A stretch of DNA of 64,000 nucleotides from positions 192,001 to 256,000 of the forward strand of contig CAVOGR010000007.1 in assembly GCA_963695555.1 (NCBI GenBank), in the 5' to 3' direction. A program made the position numbers and the translations under genes. This document shows, one piece after another, positions 47,494 through 64,000 of the stretch. Numbering within the stretch: position 1 is the stretch's first letter; every line of letters begins with the position of its first letter. The notes under the pieces are model-generated. The model had not been told where the DNA came from, did not search any database, and saw only the letters and a list, made by a program, of their open reading frames with translations. Source of the DNA: an uncultured Gemmatimonadales bacterium. Lineage in GTDB: Bacteria > Gemmatimonadota > Gemmatimonadetes > Gemmatimonadales > GWC2-71-9.

Positions 47494-47544
47494 GGCGATT
47501 GTCGGCGGCCGTGGCTCCGTCATCCAGGTCCTACCATCGTTGCA

Positions 47545-47560
47545 CTAGGGTTTCCCCTAG
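47545..47560. promoter_or_regulatory. Palindrome CTAGGG-TTTC-CCCTAG
   Basis: Inverted repeat at the left edge of the accessory region; near-identical copy at 51976-51991. Confidence 0.4.
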
Positions 47561-47715
47561 CCCACGGGGTCATGGGGTGGCAGGATCGTGCAAGCCTGTC
47601 AAACTTAGAATGCTCTCCGGCGACACACCCCATGTCCTCCCCAGATCTGCGCAGTCCATTTCTGGGCTAGGCGACATCACCGGCCGCCGCTGACCCGCCA
47701 CCGAGGAGTCCTACA

Positions 47716-48462
47716 ATGGAGCAGCTGCAGGCACGCACGCAGCTTGTACGCATCCGTGCGGAACTGATTGCTGCCGACCTGGAGGCGCACGACACCGCGT
47801 TCCCGTCCCTTCGGTCAGTCGATGCACGTGTCCGCGAGGTCAAGCTCATTCTGAGCAGCATTGGTGCCACGCTGCTTCTAGATGAGATGGAGAAGGACGC
47901 CGACTTCGGCGCGAACAGCCGGCGCGTTAGACTCGAGGCGCTCGCAAACTACTGCGCGACAGCACTAACCTTCCTTGACGCTGGCGCTTTGGGCCGTAAG
48001 AGACAGCTGGTTCGGGGTCCCTCCTTTCACCGCTTGACCGTGGTTATGCCAGGCCTGGAGGAAGTTGTGCAAGAGCGCTGGCTCGAGGCCCAGCGGTGCC
48101 AGCATGCGAAGGCTTATCTTGCCGCTGTCATAATCATGGGTAGCATTCTTGAGGGCCTGCTCCTTGCGCGCGCGTCTCTCGATGCTCCTGCCGCTTTCCG
48201 AGCAGCAGCGGCCCCGCGGGCTCGCGACGGCAAGAACGTCGCCCTGCAGGACTGGAAGCTCTCGGCGCTGATCGATGTTGCTGTCGAGCTGCGTTGGCTC
48301 AAGAGTGACCGAGGTAGCTTCTCCCACGCGCTCCGGCAGTCACGCAACGTGTTACACCCATGGGAGCACGTATCCAATGCAGCAAATTTTGATGAGGCGA
48401 CCTGCGGAACGTGCTGGCACGTCCTGAACGCGGCTGTCCAGGACCTCCTCGTCTCTATTTAG
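47716..48462 (+). CDS. HEPN-like domain protein
   Basis: AYLAAVIIMGSILEGLL helix and LRQSRNVLHP motif; GAGGAG RBS. Confidence 0.6.
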   Translation: MEQLQARTQLVRIRAELIAADLEAHDTAFPSLRSVDARVREVKLILSSIGATLLLDEMEKDADFGANSRRVRLEALANYCATALTFLDAGALGRKRQLVRGPSFHRLTVVMPGLEEVVQERWLEAQRCQHAKAYLAAVIIMGSILEGLLLARASLDAPAAFRAAAAPRARDGKNVALQDWKLSALIDVAVELRWLKSDRGSFSHALRQSRNVLHPWEHVSNAANFDEATCGTCWHVLNAAVQDLLVSI

Positions 48463-48495
48463 CAGACTTTCACCCCGGAGCCACTAGCTGCGCGA

Positions 48496-49716
48496 ATGAC
48501 CGAGAACAAACCGGTATCGCTGCCGAGCGTTGCGCTCGTTCAAGCATCGGAAGTGCCATCGCTGCTAGAATGCATCCGCCCGTCGTGGCAGGCTAAGAAT
48601 CTCATCGGGCGCGTCAAGAAACTCATTGAGGTCGACCCCAGCAGTGCGTGCCAGCGCTTGTTCAACGCTGCCATTCACGACCTGAGGGAGAAGATCGTCG
48701 TTGCTGGCCTCGACATTGCGCGCGAGGCAGCGAAGCAAAATAAGCTCCCCCCGGTCGACCGGCCTGAGGATGTTGAGAATTACTCTACTGAGCGACTGAT
48801 CGAACTTGCCTATCGTGTCGGTTTGCTTACGCGTCCAGATTGGCGTCGGCTCTCACGCTGCTACGAGATTCGCCGGGACCTTGAGCACGAGGACGATGAG
48901 TATGAGGCGGGTGTAGAGGATTGCATCTATATCTTCAAGACCTGTATTGAAGTTGTTCTTTCTCGCGATCCGGTACACTTGATAAGAGTCGCCGATCTGC
49001 GCGATGTTGTCGAGCAGCCCACACCCGCCATTCTCGCTGACTCCCTTGTCGCGGATTTTGCCGCCGCACCGCAGCCCCGGCAGGATGAAATCGCGCGTTT
49101 TCTAATCAGCATTGCACTCGACAAGGATCAGTCTGAGATAGTTCAACAGAACGCCTTCAATGCGATTGCCCGCCTCGCTGCCCATACCCAGAACGCGGTC
49201 AAGCTCCAACTCGCTACACATTTCCAGGAGCGGATCGGCAAGAAGGGGTTGGATCGCCGCCATGCACGGGTTGCTTATGCGGCAGGTGTGCTACCCTACC
49301 TCAAGAAGGCTGATGTCGTTCAATGCTTCGAGGACGTGTACGCCCAAATGAAGAAAGTCGGGTCGCACTGGAGCGGCCACACTGAACATGGCGAGCTGCT
49401 TCGTTCGTTTCGAGAGTTGGGCGGCGTCGGCGCTGTGCCGGCGGAGTCACGAGCCAAGTTCCTAAAATGGATGGTGTTCACGTACTTAGGGGAACCTGGC
49501 GGCATGACATCGTACGGCAATGTACGGCATGTTTTCTACAGCAACACGGCGGCCCCGTTGATCACGACCCAGATCCGCGAGGCAGCCCACCTCATCGGCA
49601 GCGAACTCAAGAAGCTTAAAGCCGACAAGGATGTCGCTACGCTTTGCACCAACGCCCACATCGCTCGGCGGTTTGAGCTCCTCCTCGACAAAGTCGAGGG
49701 TCCAGATGTGGCCTAA
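48496..49716 (+). CDS. Hypothetical protein with HEPN-like N-terminal region
   Basis: SSACQRLFNAAIHDLREKI and RRDLEH (Rx4H); helical C-terminal region. Confidence 0.5.
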   Translation: MTENKPVSLPSVALVQASEVPSLLECIRPSWQAKNLIGRVKKLIEVDPSSACQRLFNAAIHDLREKIVVAGLDIAREAAKQNKLPPVDRPEDVENYSTERLIELAYRVGLLTRPDWRRLSRCYEIRRDLEHEDDEYEAGVEDCIYIFKTCIEVVLSRDPVHLIRVADLRDVVEQPTPAILADSLVADFAAAPQPRQDEIARFLISIALDKDQSEIVQQNAFNAIARLAAHTQNAVKLQLATHFQERIGKKGLDRRHARVAYAAGVLPYLKKADVVQCFEDVYAQMKKVGSHWSGHTEHGELLRSFRELGGVGAVPAESRAKFLKWMVFTYLGEPGGMTSYGNVRHVFYSNTAAPLITTQIREAAHLIGSELKKLKADKDVATLCTNAHIARRFELLLDKVEGPDVA

Positions 49717-49812
49717 CCGGGCGTGACCCTTCGGGCACGGATGTCCTTGGATCTCATTGCCTAGGGCCGAGGGTATGCCCCAGTCGTTAGACAGCTCCTG
49801 ACTTGAGGTAGC

Positions 49813-50514
49813 ATGGATCCTTGGATACCTGGGTCGACACCAGTCTCCGTTAAGCAAGCCCACTACCTTGACGGACTACGGTTCTGCTTTGAAGCCGCAA
49901 GTTTGGCCGGGCCTCGACTGGAAGAATCCCTCCTCAAGACAGCTAGAGCACTTGTACTGAAGGAGAGGAACTACCGAGTTCCCACTATCAATGCACTTAC
50001 AGATGCATGGCTCGTTGTTGATGCAGTGTTCCGTGCCCGAAGACTAATCTCGGGGCTTCCAGGCCTAAAGCATAAGAGATCTCCTGGCAGGACTGTCTTC
50101 TTGAAGAGAACGGCCGAAGTCGAGCCGCTGCGCAACACGATTCAGCACCTCGATACCGATATGAAAGATCTGACGGACGTAGAAGAACGGGCTTGGGGTA
50201 CTCTAGAGTGGTTTGCTTCTCTTCCAGAAACCGGGCACAAAGTTCATTCCCTGTTGCTGGTTCCTGGCTTTAAGGGCGGCGGTACATACCGACTCTGCAC
50301 AATCGCCAGAGCTCCACTTACGCAGCGCATCGACCAGATCATTTTGCGCTGTCGCAAGGCCCAGTTGAATATTTCAGATGCTGTTCTGGCAATGAACGAA
50401 CTGGATCAAGGTCTTCGCAAATCGCTCGGCACACCATATGCAGGTCCTCCAATCGATGAAAGAGACATGCTGTTCCACGCTGTCGCGCGCATCGACCCAG
50501 TTAATGATCGATGA
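49813..50514 (+). CDS. Hypothetical protein with HEPN-like motif
   Basis: LRNTIQH (Rx4H); GAGG RBS; visibly lower GC. Confidence 0.5.
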   Translation: MDPWIPGSTPVSVKQAHYLDGLRFCFEAASLAGPRLEESLLKTARALVLKERNYRVPTINALTDAWLVVDAVFRARRLISGLPGLKHKRSPGRTVFLKRTAEVEPLRNTIQHLDTDMKDLTDVEERAWGTLEWFASLPETGHKVHSLLLVPGFKGGGTYRLCTIARAPLTQRIDQIILRCRKAQLNISDAVLAMNELDQGLRKSLGTPYAGPPIDERDMLFHAVARIDPVNDR

Positions 50515-50580
50515 ATGATCTCCAACCAGCGCTGCTCAACGCCAGACCGCTTACTGCAAAACGCCGATCGCCTGGATTAG

Positions 50581-51693
50581 ATGCGCCTAATCACTGCGAA
50601 CTACCTCATCCCCCTCCTTGGCCTGGCCATGCTGCTGTCAGCATGTCGGCCTCCCGACAACAGTGCACTCCCTGGTACGATGTGGCAGGGCGACCCCCAA
50701 CCCACCCTAACCCTCACCAGCGACCGCCTCCCCGAGGGCCACGAGCTGAACGGGATCTACTCGGCGCTCGAGCTGCCGGACGGCTCGCTGCTCATCGCCA
50801 ACTCGGGCGCCCACGAATTGCTTCTGGTCGACTCCGTCGGCCAATACCTGCGCACCGTGGGCCGGAGCGGCCAGGGCCCCGGCGAGTACTCGGACAACCT
50901 GCAGCTCTTCCACGGTGCGGGCGACACGGTGGTGGTGTACGACGGCGGCGCCTTACGATGGACATACTTAACGCCTTCTTTCGAAGTGGCGCGAACGGTG
51001 GTCGAGTACAACGCCGACCTGCCAAGCCCGAGCTGGCTGTACCAGGGATCGCTGGTGACCGACACCAAGATCCGGCAGAACCGGGAGCGGGCCCGCGAGA
51101 TCCTCACATCCGTACGGTCGAGCGACCCGGGCTTCGGACGTCTGCTCATCGCGAGACAGGACGCCCAGGGTGCCGTCTGGGTGCGGCGGCTCGACGACGC
51201 CACCGAGTGGGAGGTGTACCCGGGCGGCGACACGACCTACGCCCGGGTCACCCTGCCACCGGGACTGGACCTCATCGCCATCGGAAGGCAGGCGGTCGTA
51301 GGCGTCACCCGCGACAGCCTGGGCGAGGAGCAGGTCCAGGTGCACCGCCTCGCCCGGCCGCCGGGCAGCACCAGCCCCGTAACCGTCGCGGAGGCGGAAG
51401 CCCCTGCCCCGGCGGCGGCGGTGCCGGCCGAGCGGCCACCGCTCGCTCGGGACCTGGTGAATCTGGTGACCGCGCAGGAGGCCTACTACTCGAACCACGC
51501 CAGCTATGCCGACGTGGCCGATAGCCTTCGGTTTCGAATCGAGGGAGGGGGCCGGCTCTTTATTCTCTACGCCGACGAGCGCCACTGGGCCGGTGTGGCG
51601 GTGATGCCAAGCACCGGACTGACCTGCGGCATGGCGGTAGGGTATCCGACGCCGGCCAGTTGGCAGGAGGGGGTGCCGGTCTGCGACAGGTAA
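50581..51693 (+). CDS. Lipoprotein, 6-bladed beta-propeller-like, fused to pilin-like C-terminal domain
   Basis: LLSAC lipobox; GRSGQGPGEY; C-terminal DLVNLVTAQEAYYSNHASYA and terminal Cys pair. Confidence 0.65.
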   Translation: MRLITANYLIPLLGLAMLLSACRPPDNSALPGTMWQGDPQPTLTLTSDRLPEGHELNGIYSALELPDGSLLIANSGAHELLLVDSVGQYLRTVGRSGQGPGEYSDNLQLFHGAGDTVVVYDGGALRWTYLTPSFEVARTVVEYNADLPSPSWLYQGSLVTDTKIRQNRERAREILTSVRSSDPGFGRLLIARQDAQGAVWVRRLDDATEWEVYPGGDTTYARVTLPPGLDLIAIGRQAVVGVTRDSLGEEQVQVHRLARPPGSTSPVTVAEAEAPAPAAAVPAERPPLARDLVNLVTAQEAYYSNHASYADVADSLRFRIEGGGRLFILYADERHWAGVAVMPSTGLTCGMAVGYPTPASWQEGVPVCDR

Positions 51694-51951
51694 GGCGGAA
51701 GGTCGGGATGGCGGGAAGTCGGGAAGAGTGAGGAGTAGGAGTTGGTCGGTGGCGGGTTGCGCCGAGCAACCTCCTGGAGGCAGAATGGACGCCCTTGGAG
51801 CCTGCTGATGCTTGGGGGGTGTGCGCCCTGGGGGCTAGGACTTCTTACGGTCATTACCGGCTGGCGCGATTCGACCGGACTGAGCTCACGATGAGATCGT
51901 GTTCTCATCCAACCAGGTCGGCTTCATCCGACTTCACACCCTGAACGCGAA

Positions 51952-51994
51952 AGTCAGACTAGAGCTCGAGTCAGACTAGGGTTTTCCCTAGTCT
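51952..51994. promoter_or_regulatory. Direct repeat plus palindrome, candidate operator upstream of the NarL-type regulator
   Basis: AGTCAGACTAG at 51952 and 51969; AGACTAGGG-TTTT-CCCTAGTCT at 51973-51994. Confidence 0.5.
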
Positions 51995-52230
51995 TAGGAG
52001 ACGTTCGCACCCGATTCCGTGTGACCTGCGTCACAAACAGTCGCGGTTTGCCGGCAGGCGCTTGCGTTCTTCGCAGAGCCAGTAAATTGTGAGGGGAGCG
52101 AACGCATTGGCCGCAGCTGTCGCCAGACTTGGAAGGCGGCGTCGGCACCGCGGCGCGATTCGCTCCACCCCCTGCCGTGTGCGTCCTAGGCCGCGGTCAG
52201 CTCTGTTCTTCTTGCCTGGCGAGGCCCGCG

Positions 52231-52881
52231 GTGATCAGGACGGTTATCGCAAGCGATTTCACCCTCTTTCGCGAGGGCTTGGCGCGCATCTTCGCGTCTG
52301 CCGAGTCGATTGAATTGGTAGGTGTTGCGGGAAACGACATCGACTTGATGACACTCATCACCGAGCGGTCCCCACAGATCGCGGTGGTAGACATGGCAAT
52401 CGCCCGAAGCCGTGACTTGATTGCATGGATCCAGTCGGCTGGTGCAGAAACCGGCGTGGTTGCACTCGGCGTTCGGGAGGTAGAAGAGGAAGTCATCGCA
52501 TGCGCCAGCGCCGGCGTCATGGGCTACGTACCCCGCGACGGCTCGATCGAGGACCTGCTATCAGTGGTGCGAAGTACCGCCAACGGGGAGTTGCTCTGCT
52601 CGCCGAAGATCGCTGGCGCCCTACTCCGTCACGTTGCTACCTTGTCCCAAGCCGGAGCAGCCCTCGGTCCCGAGCCCGAATTGACCGCCCGAGAGCAGGA
52701 AGTTGCGGTCCTCATCGATCGAGGCATGTCTAACAAAGAGATCGCCCGTCACCTGAACATCGAAGTGTCGACGGTGAAGAACCACGTTCACCACCTCCTC
52801 GAGAAGCTAGGGGTCCATCGTCGCTCGCATGCCGCCGCGCGCATCCGGCGGAAGTTATCCTACCGCAAGCTGGTCCGGTAA
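52231..52881 (+). CDS. NarL/FixJ family response regulator (LuxR HTH)
   Basis: Receiver domain plus LTAREQEV..GMSNKEIA..TVKNHVHHLLEKL; GTG start inferred. Confidence 0.92.
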   Translation: MIRTVIASDFTLFREGLARIFASAESIELVGVAGNDIDLMTLITERSPQIAVVDMAIARSRDLIAWIQSAGAETGVVALGVREVEEEVIACASAGVMGYVPRDGSIEDLLSVVRSTANGELLCSPKIAGALLRHVATLSQAGAALGPEPELTAREQEVAVLIDRGMSNKEIARHLNIEVSTVKNHVHHLLEKLGVHRRSHAAARIRRKLSYRKLVR

Positions 52882-52990
52882 CAGAGGAACTACACCTTTC
52901 TCTCCAAGCAACCTCGTCCCAAAATGCATCCAACGATGCATGTTGGGAGTCTTGGGCCCACTCTATTCTTGATGCTGGGCCATCAGCGAC

Positions 52991-53400
52991 GTGCTTACCA
53001 TCCGCGTTCTTGTTACCGGGTTGTCCCGGCTTCGTGGCGACGTGCTTCGACACATCGTCGCCGCGCAACCGGACATGATGCTGCTGGACGAGTTACTGGA
53101 CCCTGACGTCATCCTCTCGGGCGGAGAAACCTTCCTTCCAGACATCGTGATCACCGGCCTAGAAGCTGATTGTGTAACTGCCCCATGCACTGCCCTGCTG
53201 TACTTCGATCACCATCTCGAGGTGCTGGCGCTCAGTGGGGAGACGGGAGAGGGCGTCCTCTTCAGAGCCGGCCACCCCAGGATGTCGCTGGGACGGCTAT
53301 CCACTGAGGGCCTACTCGATGTCATTCGCCACGCACCACCAGCGCGTTCTGCGCCACATCCCGACGAGGATCTAGATCCAGTTCTGAACCCAAAATGGAC
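52991..53400 (+). CDS. Degenerate receiver-like protein (in frame with the downstream precursor; end uncertain)
   Basis: IRVLVTGLSRLRGDVLRHIVAAQPDM..PDIVIT resembles a receiver fold; N-terminal part of ORF 52991..54265. Confidence 0.45.
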
Positions 53401-53572
53401 TCTATGGCCCATTGAGCACCTTACAGACGAGGCCCATATTGAGCGTCAGTTCCATGCGCTACCGTCAGCAGAGACTGCGCGCGCCGGGGCCGCACGTGAG
53501 GCCCGATCGACTCGCGCAGGCTCTGTACTTCGTCTTGGCACTTCTAACACGCAGTGGGAGGCGCGACTCGCC

Positions 53573-54265
53573 ATGACCGACAAAGAACAACTCAAGTTCT
53601 GGCGCGAGCTGAGAAACCTCCGCGACCGCATCCAACAAGACCCCAGGCTGTACCGGAAGTTCCAGGAGAACCCAACCGAGATTTTCCAGCAGTTTGAGCT
53701 CGATGTGGAGGTACCCGCGGGCCCATTGGGGAAAGAGGGCCGCCGGCTATCCGACTACCTTGACGCGCTCCGCCCGGAAGAACGACCGATCGTCGCGGAG
53801 TCGTTGCTCGAGTTGAGCGTCGCGGATGATATCGGGAAAGTCGCGATCGCACTCGCACTCGCGAATGCAGTCGCCCTGGCCAATGCAGCCGCCAACGCCA
53901 ATGCAGCCGCCAACGCCAACGCAGGGGCCAACGCAAACGCCGGGGCAAACGCCAACACCAATACGAATACGAGTGGGGTGGGGATTGGAGATCTGGTGGC
54001 AAATCCGTGGGCACGCATGGTCCTGGCCTCTGATTTCGCCGAGTCTGCGCTGGCCCGCACGCTGGCCGACCTACACTTGAATCCGGCCCGCCAGAGCGCG
54101 TTGCTCAGGCGTGTGCTGACCGATGACGAGAGTGTTCTGAGTTCCAAGGTGGTCGGCGATGCGGAGTTCCGACTCGCACAGTACTCCTTCCGCGGTACGG
54201 TATTCCAGGTTGAGGGGTTGCTTCGAGGTGACGTGATCGAGGTCGTCAACACCCGGCTCATGTAG
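53573..54265 (+). CDS. RiPP precursor 1: NHLP-like leader, internal Ala/Asn core, C-terminal follower domain (230 aa)
   Basis: GGGAGG RBS; RIQQDPRLYRKFQENPTEIFQQFELDV leader-like segment; core VAIALALANAVALANAAANANAAANANAGANANAGANANTNTNT; directly upstream of maturases. Confidence 0.8.
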   Translation: MTDKEQLKFWRELRNLRDRIQQDPRLYRKFQENPTEIFQQFELDVEVPAGPLGKEGRRLSDYLDALRPEERPIVAESLLELSVADDIGKVAIALALANAVALANAAANANAAANANAGANANAGANANTNTNTSGVGIGDLVANPWARMVLASDFAESALARTLADLHLNPARQSALLRRVLTDDESVLSSKVVGDAEFRLAQYSFRGTVFQVEGLLRGDVIEVVNTRLM

Positions 54266-54300
54266 CGGAGTCGACCACACTCCGAGATGCAAGAACCGCG

Positions 54301-56262
54301 ATGGCATCCGCGCGGGAGAATCGGTCGTTTATGGGATCTGGACGGGGTAATCTGCTGCTGCTCCACATGCCGATGGCTGCGCCGAACCTGCCGAATCTGG
54401 CCATCGAGCAGCTCGCGCAGATTCTTCGCCGTGCCGGATTCCGGTGCGACGTCTCCTACCCGAACCTGCGGCTTCCCCGCTCCGTCAGCGCCCGACTCGT
54501 CCACGGCCTTCCCGGACCCGCGATCTTCGCACCCCACCGGTTCCGCATTCCTGCAGAGCAGGTGGCGGACGCGGTGGCCGCAGAGCTCAACCGCATTGCC
54601 CAGGCCGCCGGACTGTCTCGGCCAGATACTTACGACGACACCGCCACCGAGTACCTCCTGGGCATCGAAGCGGCAGGGCAGTGTCTGGACGGCACGTTGG
54701 CCGCGATTCCCGTGGGTAGCTACGACGCCATCGGCTTCTCAGTGATCTTCGATGCCCAGAAGCTGCCCTCTTGCGCCTTAGCGCATCGCCTGAAACAGCG
54801 TGAGCCTCGGATTCGGGTGCTTTTCGGCGGGACAGGTTGCGACGGGGAAATGGGCGCGGCATTGCTCGAACACTTCCCAGAGGTCGACGCGGTGCTTCAA
54901 GGCGAGGCCGATAGGACCGTTGTAGCTGCGTTCGATGCCCTGTTGGACGGTGAACTGGAAACCGTGCCCGGGCTTCTGTATCGTGATGGCGACGAGATCC
55001 TGCGTTCTTCCGTACCCGAGGATGAGCCGCCGCTTATCGGGGACGTGGTGCCAGACTATGCCACCTTCGTCGAGCAACGATCCGCCAGCGCATATCGTGA
55101 CGAACCCCTCGTTCTCTTCTACGAGGCGTCACGTGGCTGCTGGTACGGTCGCAAACAGCATTGCAACTTCTGCGGAATCAAGAACGTCGACGGGGCATAC
55201 CGAGAGAAGGCGCCGGACGCACTCCTCCAAGAGATGCTCTCGCTGTCGAAGCGCTACGATCCGGAAACCCTATACGCGACCGATGCAATCCTGAGCCGAC
55301 AGCATATCAGCACGGTGCTCGCGGACATAGCTACGATGCGCCAGGTCGGATTGAGGCTGCCTGCCTTGTTTTTTGAAACCAAATCGAACCTGAAACCCGA
55401 AGAGATCGGACTTCTCGCCGCTGCCGGCACCAAACAAATGCAACCGGGAATCGAGAGTTTTAGCACCAACACCCTGCGTTTGATGCGCAAGGGTGCAACC
55501 ATGTTACAGCAACTCTCTTGTCTCAAGTGGTCCCGTGCGTACGGCGTCGAGTTGGTATACAGTATTCTCACCGGTACCCCCGGAGAGTCCGATGCCGACC
55601 GCGACGCCATGGCCGCGCTAATGGAGCATCTGCACCACCTGCCACCACCATATCAGACCAATCGACTCGGGCTACACCGTTTCAGCCCATACTTCAAGGA
55701 CTCAGCTGCGTTCGGGATCACCGACGTTCGTCCGTTTGCGCTGCAGAAGACCATCTATCAGACCGAGAACGTCGACCTGTTGTGCCGACTCTGCTATGAG
55801 CTGGAGTACAGCCTTGAGCCTGAAGTGGTACCGATCGGACCAGGAAGCATGGAACGTCTGTCCGAGGCGGTCAGGCGATGGCGTGAAGCGTACTTTGCCG
55901 GCTGTAGGATGGTGGTCCGACCACTCGCCGGAGGTGCCATAGTGATCCGAGCCATCGCCGATCAGGGTCCAAGGATCGACCGATATGAAGGAGTGGACGC
56001 AACCGTGCTCCTCGAAGCGGGGACGGTCGTTGGGATCGGGACGTTGGCCCGCCGCATTGGTGTGCCGGAGGCCGAGGTCGACGCGGCGGCCACGAGGCTC
56101 GAATCGCTCCACCTTCTCGTCAGGGAGGAGCGCAACCTTCTGGCACTGCCGGTGCCCCCGGCAGAGCCATGGAGGCCGCGATCCCCTCGAGCCACCCGCG
56201 ATGTTGACGCCCCCGCCCAACCCGAGGTGCTCGTTCAGGCGCGGGCCGACGCGCCGTGCTAG
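54301..56262 (+). CDS. B12-dependent radical SAM C-methyltransferase, RiPP maturation type (PoyB/PoyC-like)
   Basis: MPMAAPNLPNLAI, FGG..C.GEMG, GEAD, EASRGCWYGRKQHCNFCG (Cx7Cx2C), QPGIES, LMRKG, RFSPYF. Confidence 0.9.
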   Translation: MASARENRSFMGSGRGNLLLLHMPMAAPNLPNLAIEQLAQILRRAGFRCDVSYPNLRLPRSVSARLVHGLPGPAIFAPHRFRIPAEQVADAVAAELNRIAQAAGLSRPDTYDDTATEYLLGIEAAGQCLDGTLAAIPVGSYDAIGFSVIFDAQKLPSCALAHRLKQREPRIRVLFGGTGCDGEMGAALLEHFPEVDAVLQGEADRTVVAAFDALLDGELETVPGLLYRDGDEILRSSVPEDEPPLIGDVVPDYATFVEQRSASAYRDEPLVLFYEASRGCWYGRKQHCNFCGIKNVDGAYREKAPDALLQEMLSLSKRYDPETLYATDAILSRQHISTVLADIATMRQVGLRLPALFFETKSNLKPEEIGLLAAAGTKQMQPGIESFSTNTLRLMRKGATMLQQLSCLKWSRAYGVELVYSILTGTPGESDADRDAMAALMEHLHHLPPPYQTNRLGLHRFSPYFKDSAAFGITDVRPFALQKTIYQTENVDLLCRLCYELEYSLEPEVVPIGPGSMERLSEAVRRWREAYFAGCRMVVRPLAGGAIVIRAIADQGPRIDRYEGVDATVLLEAGTVVGIGTLARRIGVPEAEVDAAATRLESLHLLVREERNLLALPVPPAEPWRPRSPRATRDVDAPAQPEVLVQARADAPC

Positions 56263-57361
56263 TCCTCCGTCCGCGACAGCTCACGGTGCTCGCCACCAGC
56301 AACTGCACAGCTACGTGCAGCCACTGCTCGATGCAATCCGCGCCGGGACGTCGGGAGTACCTGACGTTCGCTCAAATGCGCCAAGCAATCGACGAGCTGC
56401 ATACGCTGAGTCCGCTTCGCGTTGTGATCTTCGCCGGCGGCGAACCTACACTCCTCGGCGAGGCACTGCTCGATGCGATCGCGTACGCCGATGGGCTCGG
56501 CATCCTGACCCGCTTGGTTACGAACGCGTATTGGGCCACCAATCCGGCGCGCGCGCGCGCACGCCTCATAGCGTTTCGGGAAGCGGGCCTTCGTGAACTC
56601 AACTTGAGTGCGGACGACCAACATCTTCCCTTCGTGCCATTCGAGCGAATCGAATATGCTTGGCATGCCAGCAAGGGCCTGGGGTTTCAGGCGGTCATCA
56701 TCGCCAACTGCTCAGGCCCGCGGAGCCGCGTCACCCCGTCCTACATCGAAGACCGTCTTGGGGAATCCTTGGTAAGACGATTCGATGAGGATGGATCACC
56801 GCTTCCCCTCGCTGCCCCGGCACCGGATGGCACCGTGTACGGCCTGTCCAACGCGCTATTTGCAGCGACTGGGCCGCGGCAAAGACTTACCGGATCAGGA
56901 TTTGATCTTCCCCGACACAGAAGAGGCGCTGAACACCCCGTGCCCCTGGGCCGTGCGTAGTGCAGCATTGTCCCCCTCCAATCACCTCGTCGCCTGCTGC
57001 GGTATCGAGGCCGAGGGAAATCCCGTACTCGACTTCGGTTCGGCCTCGGAGATGTCGGTCACAACGCTCGTAAACCGAGCGGACAATAGCCTCCTCGTCA
57101 ATGCAATCGCCCTGCTTGGACCCGTCTATCTGAAGCGATTTCTGACGGAGCGCGCGCCGGAGATCGCGTGGCGGCCTCGCTACAGTAGTGTGTGTGAAGT
57201 GTGTGAGCATCTGGTCACTCGTCCAGAGGTCACTTGGTGCCCTCCGCTCTCACTCGGCCGAACTTGCCCTTCAACTCCTACCCGTGCGCGACGCACTGGA
57301 GGAGGTCGCTCCCGCGGATGCGGAAACCTCAGATGCTTATCACCTCACAGGCACCTACTGA
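56256..57361 (+). CDS. Radical SAM enzyme, putative peptide epimerase (PoyD-like); frameshifts near 56855 and 57235
   Basis: CTATCSHC, FAGGEP, VTNAYWA, LSADDQH; C-terminal CPW..ACCG..CEVC in the next frame. Confidence 0.75.
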
Positions 57362-58429
57362 ACTCGAAGGCGGCTCCCTAGGCCGGCTGGGCGACGAACT
57401 GCAGCACACTGGCTATGCTGAGTTCTGCTCCACGTTCTTCCCGCTTGCACCACGGCTGGAACACTGGATCGAACATCGGGACGACGCACCCCAGGAGCTG
57501 CGAAGCCTGGTCGATCTCTTTCTCCTGGCGCAGCCAACGAGCTATGACGACTTGCCACGCGGACTACGCGCGGTCGTGGAAGCGCTTGTGGAAATCGGGA
57601 TTCTGGTTGACAGAACGGATGGGATGGTCAGTACGCCTGGCCTGGTCGCTGCTGCCCGTGTTCGGCTACTGGCTCTTTTTCCAGAAACCAACCCGGAATC
57701 CAGCACTCTACTTCGGCGATGACTCCGTAGCCCTGGCCTGCCGCATCCGCCCACGCCACGGGGGGAGCACGCTGGACCTGTGCGCCGGTCCTGGCATTCA
57801 GTCCCTGGTGGCAAGCGGCATCAGCGGTTCAGTGACGGCCGTGGAAATCAACCCAGCCGCGGCCGAGATCGCGAAATTGAACGTCATGATTAACCGTCGC
57901 GACGATCGGATTTCAGTACTCACCGGGGACTTGTATGAACCCCTCTCACCTGACCTGCGGTACGATCACGTAGTAGCAAATCCACCCCTCTTACCCGTGC
58001 CAAGGAACATGCAGTATCCCTTTGTCGGCGACGGGGGACCGGACGGCCTCACCGTGACGCGACGTATCCTCTCCGGACTGCCAACTAGGCTCCACCCGGC
58101 CGGCACCGCGCAGATAATCGGTACCTGTCTCAGCGATGGGATCTTGCCGTTCGCTGCCGACGAGATGGCCGAATGGACCCGTAGAACGGATATGGACCTT
58201 CGGATGACTGTGGCCGCGCACGTCCCGCTTTCCCCTGGTACCCCGATGTTTCAAGGGCTGGTCGAGACGGCTGGCGGACCGGATTTGGCGGAATCCTTCG
58301 CGTCGTTTCTTGCTGCGCGAGCGCGCCGGGTACTTGGCAACCTTCTTTCTGCATGTGAGGTGGGGTCAGGGACGTTTCACGGTACAAGACATGTCCAGGG
58401 ACGGACATGCCGGACTCTGGTTCGTCTGA
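57318..58429 (+). CDS. SAM-dependent N-methyltransferase (PoyE-like Asn side-chain methyltransferase candidate); frameshifts near 57647 and 58322
   Basis: YFGDDS, LDLCAGPGIQ, VEIN, GDLYEP, VANPP, GGPDGL; GGAGGAGG RBS. Confidence 0.78.
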
Positions 58430-58480
58430 CATGGCCGGGGCAGCGTGCCCCGCGCGAACGAGCAATGGGAGAGGATCATC

Positions 58481-60045
58481 ATGGCTGACGTGACGGATGG
58501 AGCGGAAGGACGTGGCGCACCTCGAATCAAGCGTGACAATTTCGTCGCGAGAATCGTGACCGACCCAGAGCGCCCGGTCGGCGCACTTGTGGTTGGCGGG
58601 TACATCGGTGACGCAGCCGAAGACTCAGCGCTGCGCATCTACTTCGACGCTTCGCTGACCAGCTTTCTGGATATCGAGAAGCAAGACGTTCTTGCTTTCA
58701 AGGAGGTGCCCGAACGCGTCGATCCCCTGGGATCTACAATTCTGTGGCTCGCGCGTGACGCCAGTGTGAAGTACGGCCTGACCGAGCCAAAGCCTGGTCT
58801 TGGTGCTGCAGTGACAGCCACTGTATCGGAGCCACCACCTCCACCTCCGCCGACGGTGACACTCCCTCTGACCCCCACCTTGACAAATTATGGGGGGACC
58901 TGGGGCCCGACTCGGTCCCAGCCCAGCTGGCCGACGCACCCGACGGTGCCCGCCGCCGACCTGGCCCACGGCAACCCACCGTGCCCACGCGGACGACGAC
59001 GCCGCCGACCATGTCGCAACCGAGCTGGCCCACCCAACCGACGGCCACCCCGCCGACCTGGCCCACGGAACCCACCGTGCCCACGCGGACGATGACGCCG
59101 CCGACCATGTCGCAGCCCAGCTGGCCCACCCAGCCCACGGCCTCACCCCCGACCTGGCCTACGGCACCGACGATGACCCCGCCGACCATGTCGCAGCCCA
59201 GCTGGCCCACCCAGCCCACGGCCTCACCCCCGACCTGGCCTACGGCACCGACGATGACCCCGCCCACCATGTCGCAACCCAGCTGGCCCACCCAGCCCAC
59301 GGCCTCACCCCCGACCTGGCCCACGGCACCGACGATGACCCCGCCGACCATGTCGCAGCCCAGCTGGCCTACCCAGCCCACGGCCTCACCGCCGACCTGG
59401 CCCACGGCACCGACGATGACCCCGCCCACCATGTCGCAGCCCAGCTGGCCTACCCAGCCCACGGCCTCACCCCCGACCTGGCCCACGGCACCGACGATGA
59501 CCCCGCCGACCATGTCGCAGCCCAGCTGGCCTACCCAGCCCACGGCCTCGCCGCCGACCTGGCCCACGGCACCGACGATGACCCCGCCGACCATGTCGCA
59601 GCCCAGCTGGCCTACCCAGCCCACGGCCTCGCCGCCGACCTGGCCCACGGCACCGACGATGACCCCGCCCACCATGTCGCAGCCCAGCTGGCCTACCCAG
59701 CCCACGGCCTCACCGCCGACCTGGCCCACGGCGCCGACGATGACCCCGCCCACCATGTCGCAGCCCAGCTGGCCCACCCAGCCCACGGCCTCACCGCCGA
59801 CCATGTCGCAACCCAGTTGGCCCACGGAACCCACCGTGCCCACCCGCACGATGACGCCGCCCACGATGTCGCAACCCAGCTGGCCGACGCAACCGACGGC
59901 CACGCCGCCCACGATGTCACAACCCAGCTGGCCCACCCAACCAACGGCCACACCGCCCACGATGACCCCGCCGACCATGTCGCAACCGACGGTCACAATC
60001 ATCCCTACGGGCCCGGGGCATTGGGGATGGGGATGGCAGTGGTGA
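58481..60045 (+). CDS. RiPP-like precursor 2: globular N-terminal domain plus long Thr/Ser/Pro repeat region (~520 aa after correcting two apparent insertions at ~58950-58975)
   Basis: GGAGAGGA RBS; DNFVARIVTDP..GYIG..RIYFD..WLARDA domain; repeat text starts in frame 58445 and continues in ORF 58981..60045. Confidence 0.75.
59101..59800 (+). repeat. 81-bp coding tandem repeat, 8 full units plus a partial unit, with degenerate flanking units (58910-59990)
   Basis: Unit starts at 59101, 59182, 59263 etc.; encodes TMSQPSWPTQPTASPPTWPTAPTMTPP. Confidence 0.95.
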
Positions 60046-60111
60046 TTTGCTCTGCGGCTGAACAAGCTACCGCCGAGGCACCCATGTATCGCGCCTGAGA
60101 GGGAGAGGTTA

Positions 60112-61282
60112 TTGCACTTCAGTTGCCCGGGACTTGTTCAATACCTTCTCGAGACGGGCTGGCTCACAAGAGCCAGCCTAGTCCGGGCTATGCTCGAGAT
60201 CGTTCCCGTTGGACGACGCAATCGAAATTTCCGCGTGATGATCGGAAAGTCGGGGGGCCTTTTCGTTAAGCAGATTCAACGCGACGAGGTCTGCTGCGTG
60301 GCACACTGTGCGGCGTGAAGCACTCTTCTATCGTGAAGTGGCAGCACGGGAGCCACTGAAGGAAATGCGCCCGCTTGTGCCCCGCTTCTTGGGATGGGAT
60401 GCCGAACGAAGTACGGTCATCACCGAACTTGTCGAAGAGGCACAGACACTCCTCGCCGTCTCAGGGCAACCAGGGCAACATCGTTTTGCGATGATTGGCC
60501 GCACATTGGCTGCGGTCCACGGTTCGCGGGATGCGCTGAGCCGAGAGCAATCCTTGCACCAAGAGCTTGAGAATCGGGTACCTTGGATCCTGGACCTTGC
60601 GATGAATCCCTCCGCATTCATCCGAATTGGTGGGGGCGACATGATTACGTTCCTGGCGCTCCTGGAGGAGTATCCAGCCTTATTGAAGTGGCTAGGCCAC
60701 GCGCGGTCCGCGTGGGTTTGCGATGCCTTTATTCATGGCGACCTGCGCTGGGACAACATTCTCCTCGTCTCGAAGAACGGCTATTCCTCAAGGGTGGTTT
60801 TCGCGGATTGGGAACTATACGATCTTGGGGACTCTGCCTGGGATATCGCGACCATCATCAGAGATGCTTTGTTGATCGAGTTCTTTCAGCCAGGCTCCCT
60901 TCGGGCCCGCGGCCCCGCGATCCCGGCGCTGCTGGCAGCCTATCTCGATTGCCGGCCGGCACTGCGGCCAGACTTTGGCCAGTGGCGCTCTCGGGTAGTC
61001 ATCTACGCTGTCACTCAGTTGTGTCTTGCTGCGTTCGAGCAGCTCGCCGCTCGCGTCCGTGCTGGCAATGAGGTGCGGGCTTTAGTGGGTTGGGCGGATC
61101 AGCTTGGTCGTTCGACTGAGAGCGCTCGACTGGGTCTTCCCGGATGTCCGAGTCCCTTAGTCGCGCGGCTATCCGCCAGGCGATCACGTGGGTCCTCCGG
61201 GATCTACGGTTGTATCCCGCTGCCTTCATGCTGCGGGGCCGAGCCTACCCGTTGCCCCCCCAGCCAGGAGATCATTTACTAG
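60112..61282 (+). CDS. APH-family phosphotransferase (class V lanthipeptide-type kinase); frameshift near 60300, true end possibly near 61150
   Basis: RRNRNFRV..LFVKQ, RREALFY, IHGDLRWDNIL, DWE..GD.AWDIA. Confidence 0.82.
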
Positions 61283-62142
61283 CGCTCCGCGCGGCCCTTC
61301 AGCAAGTACTGTACGAGGTCTGTTACACCCGCCTATTGTCTGACTCCACATTCGACCAGTGGCGACCCAGTACCACGTCGGATGCCGACAATGGGTTCAC
61401 CGAAGTGTTGGCTCAGGCTGTCGGAGGGGCCCCGCGCTGGGAAGGGGGGTGGCGCGCAGCGAGCTCACCTGGGCCCGAAGGCATTTGGCTCACGAAACGT
61501 GAAACCTGTCGATGGGCCCAGACAGGCCACTACCTTCCAAGTTCGGAGGCCGGCCTCGATGGATACATTTGGCTTCTGATTCACCGTGAATGGCGGCACC
61601 CACTGCCCGGCTTCTACTTCATCAATGGAAGGACTCCAGGCGACGAGTGGGACGAGGCGCACCCGGCACGTTTCTACCTTCATACGCGCGCATCAACGGC
61701 AGTTGCCGTGAGCGAAATAGTCGTGAAGTTGCTGGACACCTACGAGGTCCCGTTCCGTTTCAAGACGCTGAACGTGGCATCCATGTACGATCGAGCCGAC
61801 GCTAGCGTGCTCTACGTTGGAACACAGCACGCTGCCGTCGTCGAGCGGCTTTTGCGGTATGCTTTCGCGAACGGGTCAAGCCGATGGCTGGACGAATCAG
61901 TCCCACTATTTACCATGTGCATCATTCCTGGGGTTGGGTTCGCCGTGGACCCGGGTACGGGAGAAAGCTTCGGTACAGACAGATGCAGGATCCTCGCCGA
62001 AGGAATCCTTGACGCTTGGCAAACCGGCGATACATCCGTCGATGGACGCTGGAGCGCAGTGGAAGCCAGATTCGCTGCCGTGGGTGTCGATTTGGATCAC
62101 GCATATCTCGGCGTTGATCAGGCCTCGTGGTTCGAATGCTAA
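61144..62142 (+). CDS. HopA1-like protein (class V lanthipeptide-type phospho-lyase)
   Basis: PGFYF, RFYLH, PFRFK, RADASVLYV, PLFT, GESFGTDRCRILAEG. Confidence 0.82.
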   Translation: MSESLSRAAIRQAITWVLRDLRLYPAAFMLRGRAYPLPPQPGDHLLALRAALQQVLYEVCYTRLLSDSTFDQWRPSTTSDADNGFTEVLAQAVGGAPRWEGGWRAASSPGPEGIWLTKRETCRWAQTGHYLPSSEAGLDGYIWLLIHREWRHPLPGFYFINGRTPGDEWDEAHPARFYLHTRASTAVAVSEIVVKLLDTYEVPFRFKTLNVASMYDRADASVLYVGTQHAAVVERLLRYAFANGSSRWLDESVPLFTMCIIPGVGFAVDPGTGESFGTDRCRILAEGILDAWQTGDTSVDGRWSAVEARFAAVGVDLDHAYLGVDQASWFEC

Positions 62143-62930
62143 GAGGCGCTCTGTCCCCGGCAGCGTCTCTGGAGGTGGCCACCCGCATCGGGCGGCGGCT
62201 GTGCCGGGATGCCATCTGGGACCACGATTGCTGTACTTGGCTCGGGTGGCAACCCCCGAACGAGAGCGCGGACATGGTCCCCGTCTACGGCGCGTGTGGA
62301 GGTGGATTCTATGATGGAACCGCCGGCATCGGCTGCTTCCTGCAGCATTTGAGTCAAGCGAGCCCGGATCCGCTTGTCCGTCTCACAGCGGACGGCGCTG
62401 TCCGTCAGGCCATCGGGATCGATACCGCGGCCATCCCAATATTTCCAGGTTCTCGCAGGCCTCAGGGCTCTCACCGGACAACTGTCGTTGACGCTCTTGC
62501 TGTCCTCCGTTGGAGTCTGAAAGAGACCGAGTCAGTTGGCGAGGGGGGAATCTGCAACGAGGAGATTCGCCACGCTGCTCAGTTGCTCATAGACCACCTC
62601 GGCTTCAGCCTTCAGCAGAGTTGGCTCCCGGCTTCGATGTTCGATGGGTGGTGTGGCGTCGCCGATGCGCTGCTCCTGTATGAGTGCCACAATCCAAACG
62701 CCGGTGCTAAATCCGTTGTCGAAGCAGTAGCAGCAAAGGCATACACGGTCCACGAACAATGGGGAATTCCCTGGCCCTGCGGCGGACCTGGAGGCGCCGA
62801 GACCCCCGACCTCTTACACGGCCTCGCCGGAATCGGGTGGTGCTATCTACGACTTGCCGATCCGCTGGCCGTGCCTTCGCCGTTTGCCCTGGTGGCCGGG
62901 AGGGAGAACGCGCCTGAAGGAGATAAATAG
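62127..62930 (+). CDS. Short LanC-like protein lacking CHG zinc motifs
   Basis: IGRRLCRDAIW..CTW, YDGTAGIG, WPCG..ETPDLLHGLAGIG..YLRL. Confidence 0.72.
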   Translation: MVRMLRGALSPAASLEVATRIGRRLCRDAIWDHDCCTWLGWQPPNESADMVPVYGACGGGFYDGTAGIGCFLQHLSQASPDPLVRLTADGAVRQAIGIDTAAIPIFPGSRRPQGSHRTTVVDALAVLRWSLKETESVGEGGICNEEIRHAAQLLIDHLGFSLQQSWLPASMFDGWCGVADALLLYECHNPNAGAKSVVEAVAAKAYTVHEQWGIPWPCGGPGGAETPDLLHGLAGIGWCYLRLADPLAVPSPFALVAGRENAPEGDK

Positions 62931-63256
62931 TGATTAGACTGCTGACTTTCGCACTTCCCGCGCTCTTTGTGCTGGCGGGCATTCCGCTTCGTCTCGGATG
63001 GGTTCCGCCTAACCGCTGGTACGGCTATCGGACGGCGCTCACGTTTCGCAATCCGGACGTATGGTACTCGGTGAACCGGGAGCTGGGTGTTGCCATGCTG
63101 GTCGCCGGTGTGCTGGGCCTCGCGGTTGGAGTGGCTCTGCTTCGACTCGCCCCGACCTGGCGCGGAGAGACCAGGCTTCTCGTGAGCATCATCAGCCAGA
63201 GTCTCCTGCTGTTTGCGGCGCTGTTGATTGTGGTGCTCAGAACTCAGCGTATATGA
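62930..63256 (+). CDS. SdpI family immunity protein
   Basis: VPPNRWYGYRT..W..NR signature; three TM helices. Confidence 0.85.
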   Translation: MIRLLTFALPALFVLAGIPLRLGWVPPNRWYGYRTALTFRNPDVWYSVNRELGVAMLVAGVLGLAVGVALLRLAPTWRGETRLLVSIISQSLLLFAALLIVVLRTQRI

Positions 63257-63263
63257 CAGGCGA

Positions 63264-64000
63264 TCACGGCGCCGCGACGTCCAGAATCCATCGCCCCAGT
63301 TCGGTCGTCACAGTGGCAGAGATCCGCCGCCGCCGGTCACCGTATGAGGCAAACCCGGAGGAATTGGTTACATGCCGCAGCAGATGGTCATGGTGAGGGA
63401 GCAATATCAAACGGCCTTTCAGGCCTGCGGCGCGGGCCGCGCGAAGAAGCAGGTGTGCATCCGCGACGGTTACCTGCAGGTCCGCCTTGCCTTGCAGGAT
63501 GAGGACAGGGCACCGGACAGCACCCAGCAGGTGCAAGGGATCGCGAACGTCGAGGCTTCGGTACCAGCGCCGAAGGTGCCGGAGCAGCACCAGCCCAGCC
63601 GGGACCCGGCCGGAAGTCCAACGAGGTGATCGCCGAGCGTGATAAAACAACTCCCGTACCTCCGCCTGTCTATGAGCAAGCCATTCCGAACCCAAACGAA
63701 GCTTGCGGGCCTGTATCGCAACCTGCTCCAGCAAAACAGACTCAATCGGACGACCCGCAGTGGCCAGCAGGGCCAAGCCGGCTACATTCCGATTTCTGCC
63801 GGCGACTTCCATTGCAAGCAGCCCCCCTTCACTGTGTCCGATCAAGAACGTAGGAACGCCCTGCACTTCCTGCCGCGAGCGAAGAACTGCAAACGCTGCA
63901 CGGGCCCGTGCCAACAACGATTCAAATCGTGGTTCCTCTGCAACCTCGAGCGTCTTCTCATATCGAAGGGTAGCGATACCCGCAGGCGCGAGTCGATTCG
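63264..64000 (-). CDS. Alpha/beta hydrolase (5' end probably outside the window)
   Basis: GHSEG nucleophile elbow, ILQGKADLQV, HDH; upstream frame reads like RYEKT.. Confidence 0.82.
   Translation of the reverse strand, partial: NRLAPAGIATLRYEKTLEVAEEPRFESLLARARAAFAVLRSRQEVQGVPTFLIGHSEGGLLAMEVAGRNRNVAGLALLATAGRPIESVLLEQVAIQARKLRLGSEWLAHRQAEVRELFYHARRSPRWTSGRVPAGLVLLRHLRRWYRSLDVRDPLHLLGAVRCPVLILQGKADLQVTVADAHLLLRAARAAGLKGRLILLPHHDHLLRHVTNSSGFASYGDRRRRISATVTTELGRWILDVAAP

Follow-up and report, generated by a model that had tools for sequence, protein, structure and literature searches.

In polytheonamide-type proteusins the core peptide lies at the C-terminal end of the precursor, and its N-terminal Thr is dehydrated by PoyF. 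Origamins are made with a radical SAM epimerase, OpgD, and an Asn N-methyltransferase. In polytheonamide, N-methylated Asn residues 16, 22 and 28 stabilise the beta-helix (PMC11285071). The enzymes of class Vb lanthipeptides are LanK, LanY and LanC (PMC11186320), and 20% of HopA1 proteins are encoded near LanC or fused to it (Eyles et al., PMC8153245). An NHLP hybrid with a YcaO protein, a LanM-like dehydratase and an epimerase, different from the locus studied here, has been reported (PMC10676384); hybrid proteusins as such are therefore known. Here we describe a biosynthetic island in an uncultured Gemmatimonadales bacterium (assembly GCA_963695555.1, contig CAVOGR010000007.1, forward strand), most of which lies in positions 192,001 to 256,000 of the contig; we call this whole stretch of 64,000 nucleotides the window. 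The island resembles both the polytheonamide pathway and the class V dehydratase system, yet it belongs to neither, because its first precursor has an internal core and lacks a PoyF step, and because its second precursor, as read, offers no possibility of a lanthionine. We consider it somewhat better than an even chance that the island encodes two interleaved pathways that run in parallel, each acting on its own precursor, one leading to a polytheonamide-like helix and the other to a linear poly-dehydro peptide.

The original prediction listed a co-directional run of regulator, precursor 1, B12-dependent radical SAM enzyme, second radical SAM enzyme, NPP methyltransferase, precursor 2, APH kinase, HopA1-like protein, LanC-like protein and SdpI, with a convergent alpha/beta hydrolase. 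Open reading frame (ORF) calls together with Pfam and NCBIfam profile searches confirm this order, and TIGR03975, HopA1, SdpI and DUF5969 pass their cut-offs. The list has to be extended by an additional ORF ahead of precursor 1, by the part of the hydrolase gene beyond the window and by a reductase gene that lies past the window end (Table 1). We define module 1 as the DUF5969 precursor, the B12 methyltransferase, the epimerase, the AerE-like N-methyltransferase, SdpI and the hydrolase.

Table 1. The island and its genes, in window coordinates; numbering is continued past the window end at 64,000.
Feature	Position	Strand	Evidence
Island	51743..64000, on to about 66,030		absent in G023; low GC3; GAGTGAG-rich ends
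NarL/LuxR-type response regulator	52231..52881	+	PF00196, PF00072; NF007935 E 3e-31, below cut-off
ORF of unknown family	52991 to about 53350-53572	+	receiver-like by eye only
Precursor 1	53573..54265	+	PF19394 DUF5969, 46.5 bits vs cut-off 25
B12-dependent radical SAM C-methyltransferase	54301..56262	+	TIGR03975, 421 vs cut-off 282 bits; Cx7Cx2C; intact
Radical SAM enzyme resembling YydG/EpeE, predicted epimerase	56256 to about 57300	+	best model TIGR04078 YydG
NPP methyltransferase resembling AerE, predicted to N-methylate Asn side chains	about 57330-58429	+	best PDB match 7RC2
Precursor 2	58481..60045	+	leader domain, Cys-free repeats, Trp-rich C-terminus
APH-type kinase (LanK-like)	about 60112-61180	+	HGDLRWDN, DWE; NF038156 LxmK 54 bits, cut-off 315
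HopA1-family lyase (LanY-like), intact	61144..62142	+	PF17914, 106 vs 22.7 bits; R176, K207, R217, Y224
Short LanC-like remnant, 267 residues	62127..62930	+	partial family match below cut-off; central catalytic region missing
SdpI-family membrane protein, likely immunity, module 1	62930..63256	+	PF13630
Alpha/beta hydrolase, likely peptidase, module 1	63264..64000, start about 64,838 past window	-	convergent
Aldo/keto-reductase-like gene, module 2	64,892-65,779, past window	+	no Pfam match for island copy

Precursor 1 consists of a helical, NHLP-clan-like leader (about residues 1-85), an internal Ala/Asn core (about 86-134) and a C-terminal DUF5969 domain (about 145-230), which we call the follower; the predicted structure has a helical leader, a middle of low confidence and a well-folded C-terminal domain. 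All 12 core Asn residues fall on even positions, an arrangement matched by 21 of 200,000 shuffles, with ladders at i+6 running through 98-104-110-116-122-128 and 108-114-120-126-132. A single Asn register is common to the 22 family members with few exceptions, and most have every Asn in register. A word search found 17 relatives, each with DUF5969. The NHLP-clan models TIGR04509 and NF038399 match the leaders of five of the 18 members of the alignment weakly (best E 8e-5) and that of the island copy not at all. The precursor contains no Cys, and it was found neither in 400 genomes of the same phylum nor, apart from genome G401, in 300 genomes of the phylum to which G401 belongs. The ORF of unknown family upstream is in frame with precursor 1 with no stop between them (52,991-54,265); it has no Pfam or NCBIfam match and does not match the regulator partner from Runella. 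The relatives of precursor 1 all begin at the later Met (53,573), where a GGAGG site is present.

The enzymes of module 1 invite comparison with the polytheonamide and aeronamide systems (PoyA-F, AerA-F). The likenesses are the TIGR03975 B12 enzyme, whose Cx7Cx2C motif is that of PoyC, the AerE-like methyltransferase, the i+6 Asn in one register and the weak NHLP-clan leader matches. The methyltransferase has its best PDB match in 7RC2 (E 8e-12), identified as AerE (PMC9060474); the equivalent of Asn231 is aligned, and Tyr137 and Asp141 are matched by spacing only. The island differs from these systems in that the core is internal, ahead of a folded domain of 85 residues, and carries two Asn ladders, the epimerase is closest to YydG/EpeE, the methyltransferase reads NPPL instead of NPPF, no PoyF- or LanM-type dehydratase domain is found among the genes, and the partners include SdpI and an alpha/beta hydrolase. 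For the epimerase, the epipeptide enzymes (YydF/YydG, EpeE) provide the closest profile and the only PDB matches, but the match to TIGR04078 is confined to the N-terminal radical SAM part and lies far below the cut-off (63 bits against 300), and the island substrate has 230 residues with many candidate sites. Intact homologues of the epimerase share 54-62% identity in Rhizobium and 48-57% in locus L010. Module 1 may be the same as, or related to, the origamin family. No relevant paper on origamin or OpgD was found in the literature searched.

The set of precursor, epimerase and methyltransferase recurs in Rhizobium (L022), Klebsiella (L046), Collinsella (L047), Thermus (L048) and G401. Its partners are the B12 enzyme, hydrolase and SdpI in Rhizobium; SdpI, an acyltransferase and an exporter in Klebsiella; SdpI and a serine hydrolase in Thermus; and the B12 enzyme, hydrolase and an S8 protease in G401, where the module is spread over three contigs. 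SdpI homologues adjoin module 1 in the Klebsiella, Thermus and Rhizobium loci, and hydrolase homologues sit after the methyltransferase in G401 and Rhizobium. SdpI and the hydrolase are thus best assigned to module 1, with which they travel elsewhere, and not to module 2. Five of the 12 records with an epimerase match were examined, and viral contigs yielded no epimerase relative. The Klebsiella sp. PL-2018 plasmid (L046:6862-16582) carries, in addition to module 1, a 562-residue protein of no known function, a lysine acyltransferase of the toxin-activating kind and a type I exporter; the precursor there combines an Asn core with a follower that has diverged. On the Rhizobium leguminosarum Vaf10 plasmid (L022:15742-18670) an insertion sequence interrupts the module 1 gene for the B12 methyltransferase.

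Precursor 2, about 520 residues long, begins with a leader of about 100 residues from a large family that has no name (997 clusters at E<=0.001). Among the best 150 matches, 137 have tails of at least 40 residues; at least three Cys are present in 129 of these 137, and Cys is the commonest residue ahead of Pro-Thr (43%). Precursor 2 as read contains no Cys in either part. Its tail comprises about 13 QPSWPT-type units (an 81-nt unit, 8.8 copies at 97%) and ends in a Trp-rich C-terminus; Trp precedes Pro-Thr 22 times, and 129 of 354 residues are Ser or Thr. We infer a change from Cys to Trp followed by expansion of the repeat. The tail of the nearest relative, P0030 (62%), is Cys-free too, though it may be chimeric. 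The leader was found in none of 300 genomes of the same order and in none of 401 genomes of the phylum of G401; a word search found nothing among longer proteins, and P0042 gave no relevant plasmid match. Two other frames over the repeat, 58890-60098 on the forward and 58734-60065 on the reverse strand, were rejected: the first QPSWPT unit continues the leader frame, and the GC content at third codon positions (GC3) is 0.88 in the chosen frame.

Module 2 shares with class V lanthipeptide systems (cacaoidin, lexapeptide and the class Vb SmoA) a split APH kinase and HopA1 lyase with catalytic residues and, behind the lyase, a gene derived from LanC. About 150 central residues are missing from the LanC-like protein, as are the GxxHG, WCHG and CHG motifs, whose roles in LanC-like proteins we take to be those in NisC; 25 of 36 full-length matches have all three. 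In the lyase R176, K207, R217 and Y224 are kept, at spacings of 31/10/7 as against 32/10/7 in CaoY, whose equivalent residues have been tested or described (PMC9486802). Class V cyclases are an intact LanC in class Vb and LanD/LanX in class Va. Besides lacking Cys and the LanC catalytic region, the island differs from class V in that no LanD-like gene was found in it, and precursor 2 is longer, with its many repeats, than the ORFs of under 110 residues collected in PMC9486802. Because precursor 2 is Cys-free and the catalytic middle of the LanC-like protein is missing, module 2 as read cannot form lanthionines. The class V assignment of the original prediction therefore holds for the dehydration machinery and not for the rings. 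It is likely that module 2 derives from a LanK/LanY/LanC system of the class Vb type after the loss of both ring-forming partners.

Kinase/HopA1 cassettes occur in six of 400 genomes of the same phylum and on five plasmids (five of the 11 plasmid records with a HopA1 match were examined). In one of these 11 loci, in Deinococcus, a leader of the precursor 2 type with a Cys-containing core lies ahead of APH and an intact HopA1-LanC fusion bearing the WCHG and CHG motifs. The reductase has two plasmid matches at E<=1e-12; each lies immediately behind APH-HopA1 and carries an aldo/keto reductase annotation. Three related genomes encode short Lys-rich precursors with a GPGC-containing tail ahead of an intact APH-HopA1-LanC (L029:3396-3689, L030:9921-10124, L034:9740-9997). 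Two APH/HopA1 loci without LanC (L036:8726-9160, reverse strand, and L037:9418-9786) encode precursors that are poor in Cys and whose Trp/His-rich C-termini recall the Trp-rich end of precursor 2.

In the sister genome G023 the match to the left flank ends at window position 51,742 and picks up again at 66,032; its flanks are joined directly at the same site, so that the whole 14.3-kb island is one block relative to the sister. The block ends directly after the aldo/keto-reductase-like gene. A repeated GAGTGAG-rich intergenic element with many copies in G023 lies at both island ends (51,690-51,745 and about 65,850-66,450), and because of this both a gain here and a recombinational loss in G023 are possible; the low GC3 of the island genes (0.64-0.70, compared with 0.86 for four genes in the flanks) favours a gain. 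The core of module 1 is followed by the core of module 2, then by the module 1 accessories SdpI and hydrolase and finally by the module 2 reductase. This interleaving exceeds mere adjacency and suggests that both modules are inherited together, although the arrangement has been seen once. A search for sigma-70-like promoters found none, and terminator-like sites occur at chance level (10 versus 7.5). Inversion of the hydrolase gene was considered as well, but the only support was one 12-nt inverted pair among 68, which was taken as chance.

One alternative is that the locus is a true hybrid, in which enzymes cross between modules or both products form one two-component agent; for example, T129, T131, T133 and S134, which close core 1 on its C-terminal side, would be dehydrated, or the repeats of precursor 2 methylated or epimerised. 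The single island, the single co-directional run and the interleaved accessory genes agree with this, as does the variability of module 1 partners elsewhere (the B12 enzyme in Rhizobium and G401, the acyltransferase and exporter in Klebsiella). However, the kinase/HopA1 pair is absent, within the stretches fetched, from all five informative module 1 loci, a count that omits Streptomyces L049 (a different precursor and no matching methyltransferase) and L002 (2.3 kb, too short), and module 1 genes are nearby in none of the 11 kinase/HopA1 loci. The fragmented G401 assembly has no HopA1 or precursor 2 match. GC3 also differs between module 1 (0.69, 2123 codons) and module 2 (0.64, 1332 codons), which fits separate origins. 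We therefore regard a true hybrid as unlikely, though less so than the other alternatives. The original prediction that two pathways are joined in one locus stands insofar as each lies beside its own precursor in a single insertion relative to the sister; the functional coupling it envisaged is unsupported, and the halves were not seen to co-occur elsewhere. Scans for further precursor 1 loci, covering 11 of 64 parts of genome_contigs and three of 64 parts of metagenome_contigs, gave one locus each and no second joint locus among the matches listed, and both precursors are rare in the genomes sampled. The claim that the combination is undescribed agrees with the literature searched, in which we found no such combined cluster among titles and abstract starts and no paper on LanK/LanY together with radical SAM; related HopA1-LanC precursors may be included in the supplements of PMC8153245. 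The two gene sets likely share regulation and inheritance but not substrates, and the best reading is that both halves were acquired together as parallel pathways.

A second alternative is that module 2 is a decaying passenger, and that its missing Cys, the deletion in LanC and the broken frames represent pseudogenisation. In line with this, the LanC-like protein is short, a long branch leads to the pair that it forms with P0181 in a quick tree, and four of the 12 biosynthetic genes of the island are split, compared with five of 29 in the flanks. The breaks lie near 56,860-56,920 and 57,235 in the epimerase, near 57,640 and 58,280 in the methyltransferase, near 58,950-58,980 in precursor 2 and near 60,300 in the kinase, with a second one probable near the kinase C-terminus. 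However, orthologous flanking genes are split in six of 29 cases in G023 as well, and the indel listing shows a dense cluster of single-base gaps at 41.5-43.9 kb within frames that are open in the sister; the island breaks are therefore likely assembly errors. The central LanC deletion is inherited and not an assembly slip, because P0181 (47% identity) and its cluster mate P0218, both intact at 250 residues, are equally short, and the island protein and P0181 form one clade with support 100. The catalytic residues of kinase and lyase and the reading frame of the reductase are intact, and the tail of P0030, chimeric or not, is likewise free of Cys. Decay of module 2 thus appears somewhat less probable than a hybrid.

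The follower opens a third possibility, that precursor 1 is a modified protein toxin whose D/L N-methyl-Asn helix serves as a needle that crosses membranes and delivers a RelE/BECR-fold DUF5969 domain into rival bacteria. Modelled alone, the follower folds confidently (predicted local distance difference test score, pLDDT, 93). In the structural search (VIA) the top 16 rows are all contact-dependent inhibition or toxin-antitoxin toxins; the best match has Z 7.7 and rmsd 3.1 over 83 of 93 residues, but Z below 8 is common according to the tool's own warning, and the best Foldseek E is 0.014. The helix-helix-four-strand order resembles that of BECR/RelE-fold toxins (CdiA-CT Kp342 6CP9, MqsR, RelE) and agrees with the Colicin-like topology reported in bioRxiv 10.64898/2026.08.28.747851, whose main text does not mention DUF5969; no paper on DUF5969 was found in the literature searched. 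Across the family Arg173 is invariant, E214 is conserved and basic residues occupy 179 (K/R) and 207 in 21 of 22 members. On the other side, identity to these toxins is 9-15%, the follower is joined to a core of a peptide that is made on the ribosome and modified after translation (RiPP), no His is conserved in the 22 members, and the last strand, the place of the Colicin-like BECR sites, has no conserved polar residue. Moreover, the Thermus relative has a short tail only, and no cytoplasmic immunity gene was recognised. The model thus provides a weak lead towards a RelE/BECR toxin-like fold, and toxin delivery by precursor 1 seems improbable to us. We give equally little credence to a two-product weapon, stably integrated, in which DUF5969 precursors, as a widespread class, deliver a RelE/BECR-fold payload on the attached D/L helix and a ring-less class V derivative making a giant poly-dehydro repeat partner is co-selected. 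The original suggestion that the kinase and lyase replace PoyF, capping the N-terminus of core 1, is very improbable: several relatives do have a Thr in a TP(V/I)AN motif directly ahead of the Asn repeats, but the island copy offers no substrate, with no Ser or Thr in residues 86-128, and the Thr-bearing relatives have no nearby kinase/lyase (Rhizobium) or no HopA1 match in the assembly (G401).

If the two pathways operate in parallel, the internal Ala/Asn core of precursor 1 would have its alternating residues inverted by the epimerase, the AerE-like enzyme would N-methylate D-Asn side chains in both ladders, and the B12 enzyme would add C-methyl groups. The product would be a polytheonamide-like beta-helix of about 45 residues, which the hydrolase would free from leader and folded follower while SdpI would shield the producer's own membrane. 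In module 2, the kinase and lyase would act on precursor 2 and convert many of its 129 Ser/Thr to dehydro residues; this product would remain linear, having neither Cys nor a working cyclase, and the reductase might reduce some of the dehydro residues or an N-terminal keto group.

Several points weigh against two parallel pathways. The chemistry, product release, immunity and bioactivity are all inferred. The epimerase falls under the YydG cut-off, and Phe234 of AerE, required for activity (PMC9060474), is replaced by Leu here and in all four homologues. The same four genes (epimerase, methyltransferase, precursor 2 and kinase) are split across frames. The link between precursor 2 and the kinase consists of their position here and in one of 11 other kinase/HopA1 loci, and no exporter was recognised among the island genes. 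Finally, the interleaving in the order A-B-A-B requires more than one rearrangement, which could reflect real co-function.

Outside the island, a second insertion absent from G023 at window 47,496-50,614 carries three low-GC genes (248, 406 and 233 residues) with no Pfam match. Past the window on the same contig, an ORF at 69,060-70,046 (continued numbering), present in the sister, has a DGCYARAH motif like that of protein-glutamine glutaminases; a gene with a motif of this type precedes APH-HopA1 in Runella.

DUF5969 gains a likely role, as the follower of a precursor family found across Rhizobium, Collinsella and uncultured bacteria. Klebsiella and Thermus carry this enzyme set too, which points to culturable hosts for a second route to polytheonamide-like helices. 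In module 2, a class V system without cysteines and without the cyclase core is predicted to yield a linear product in which as many as 129 sites could be dehydrated, and precursor 2 would offer a direct test of LanK/LanY processivity.

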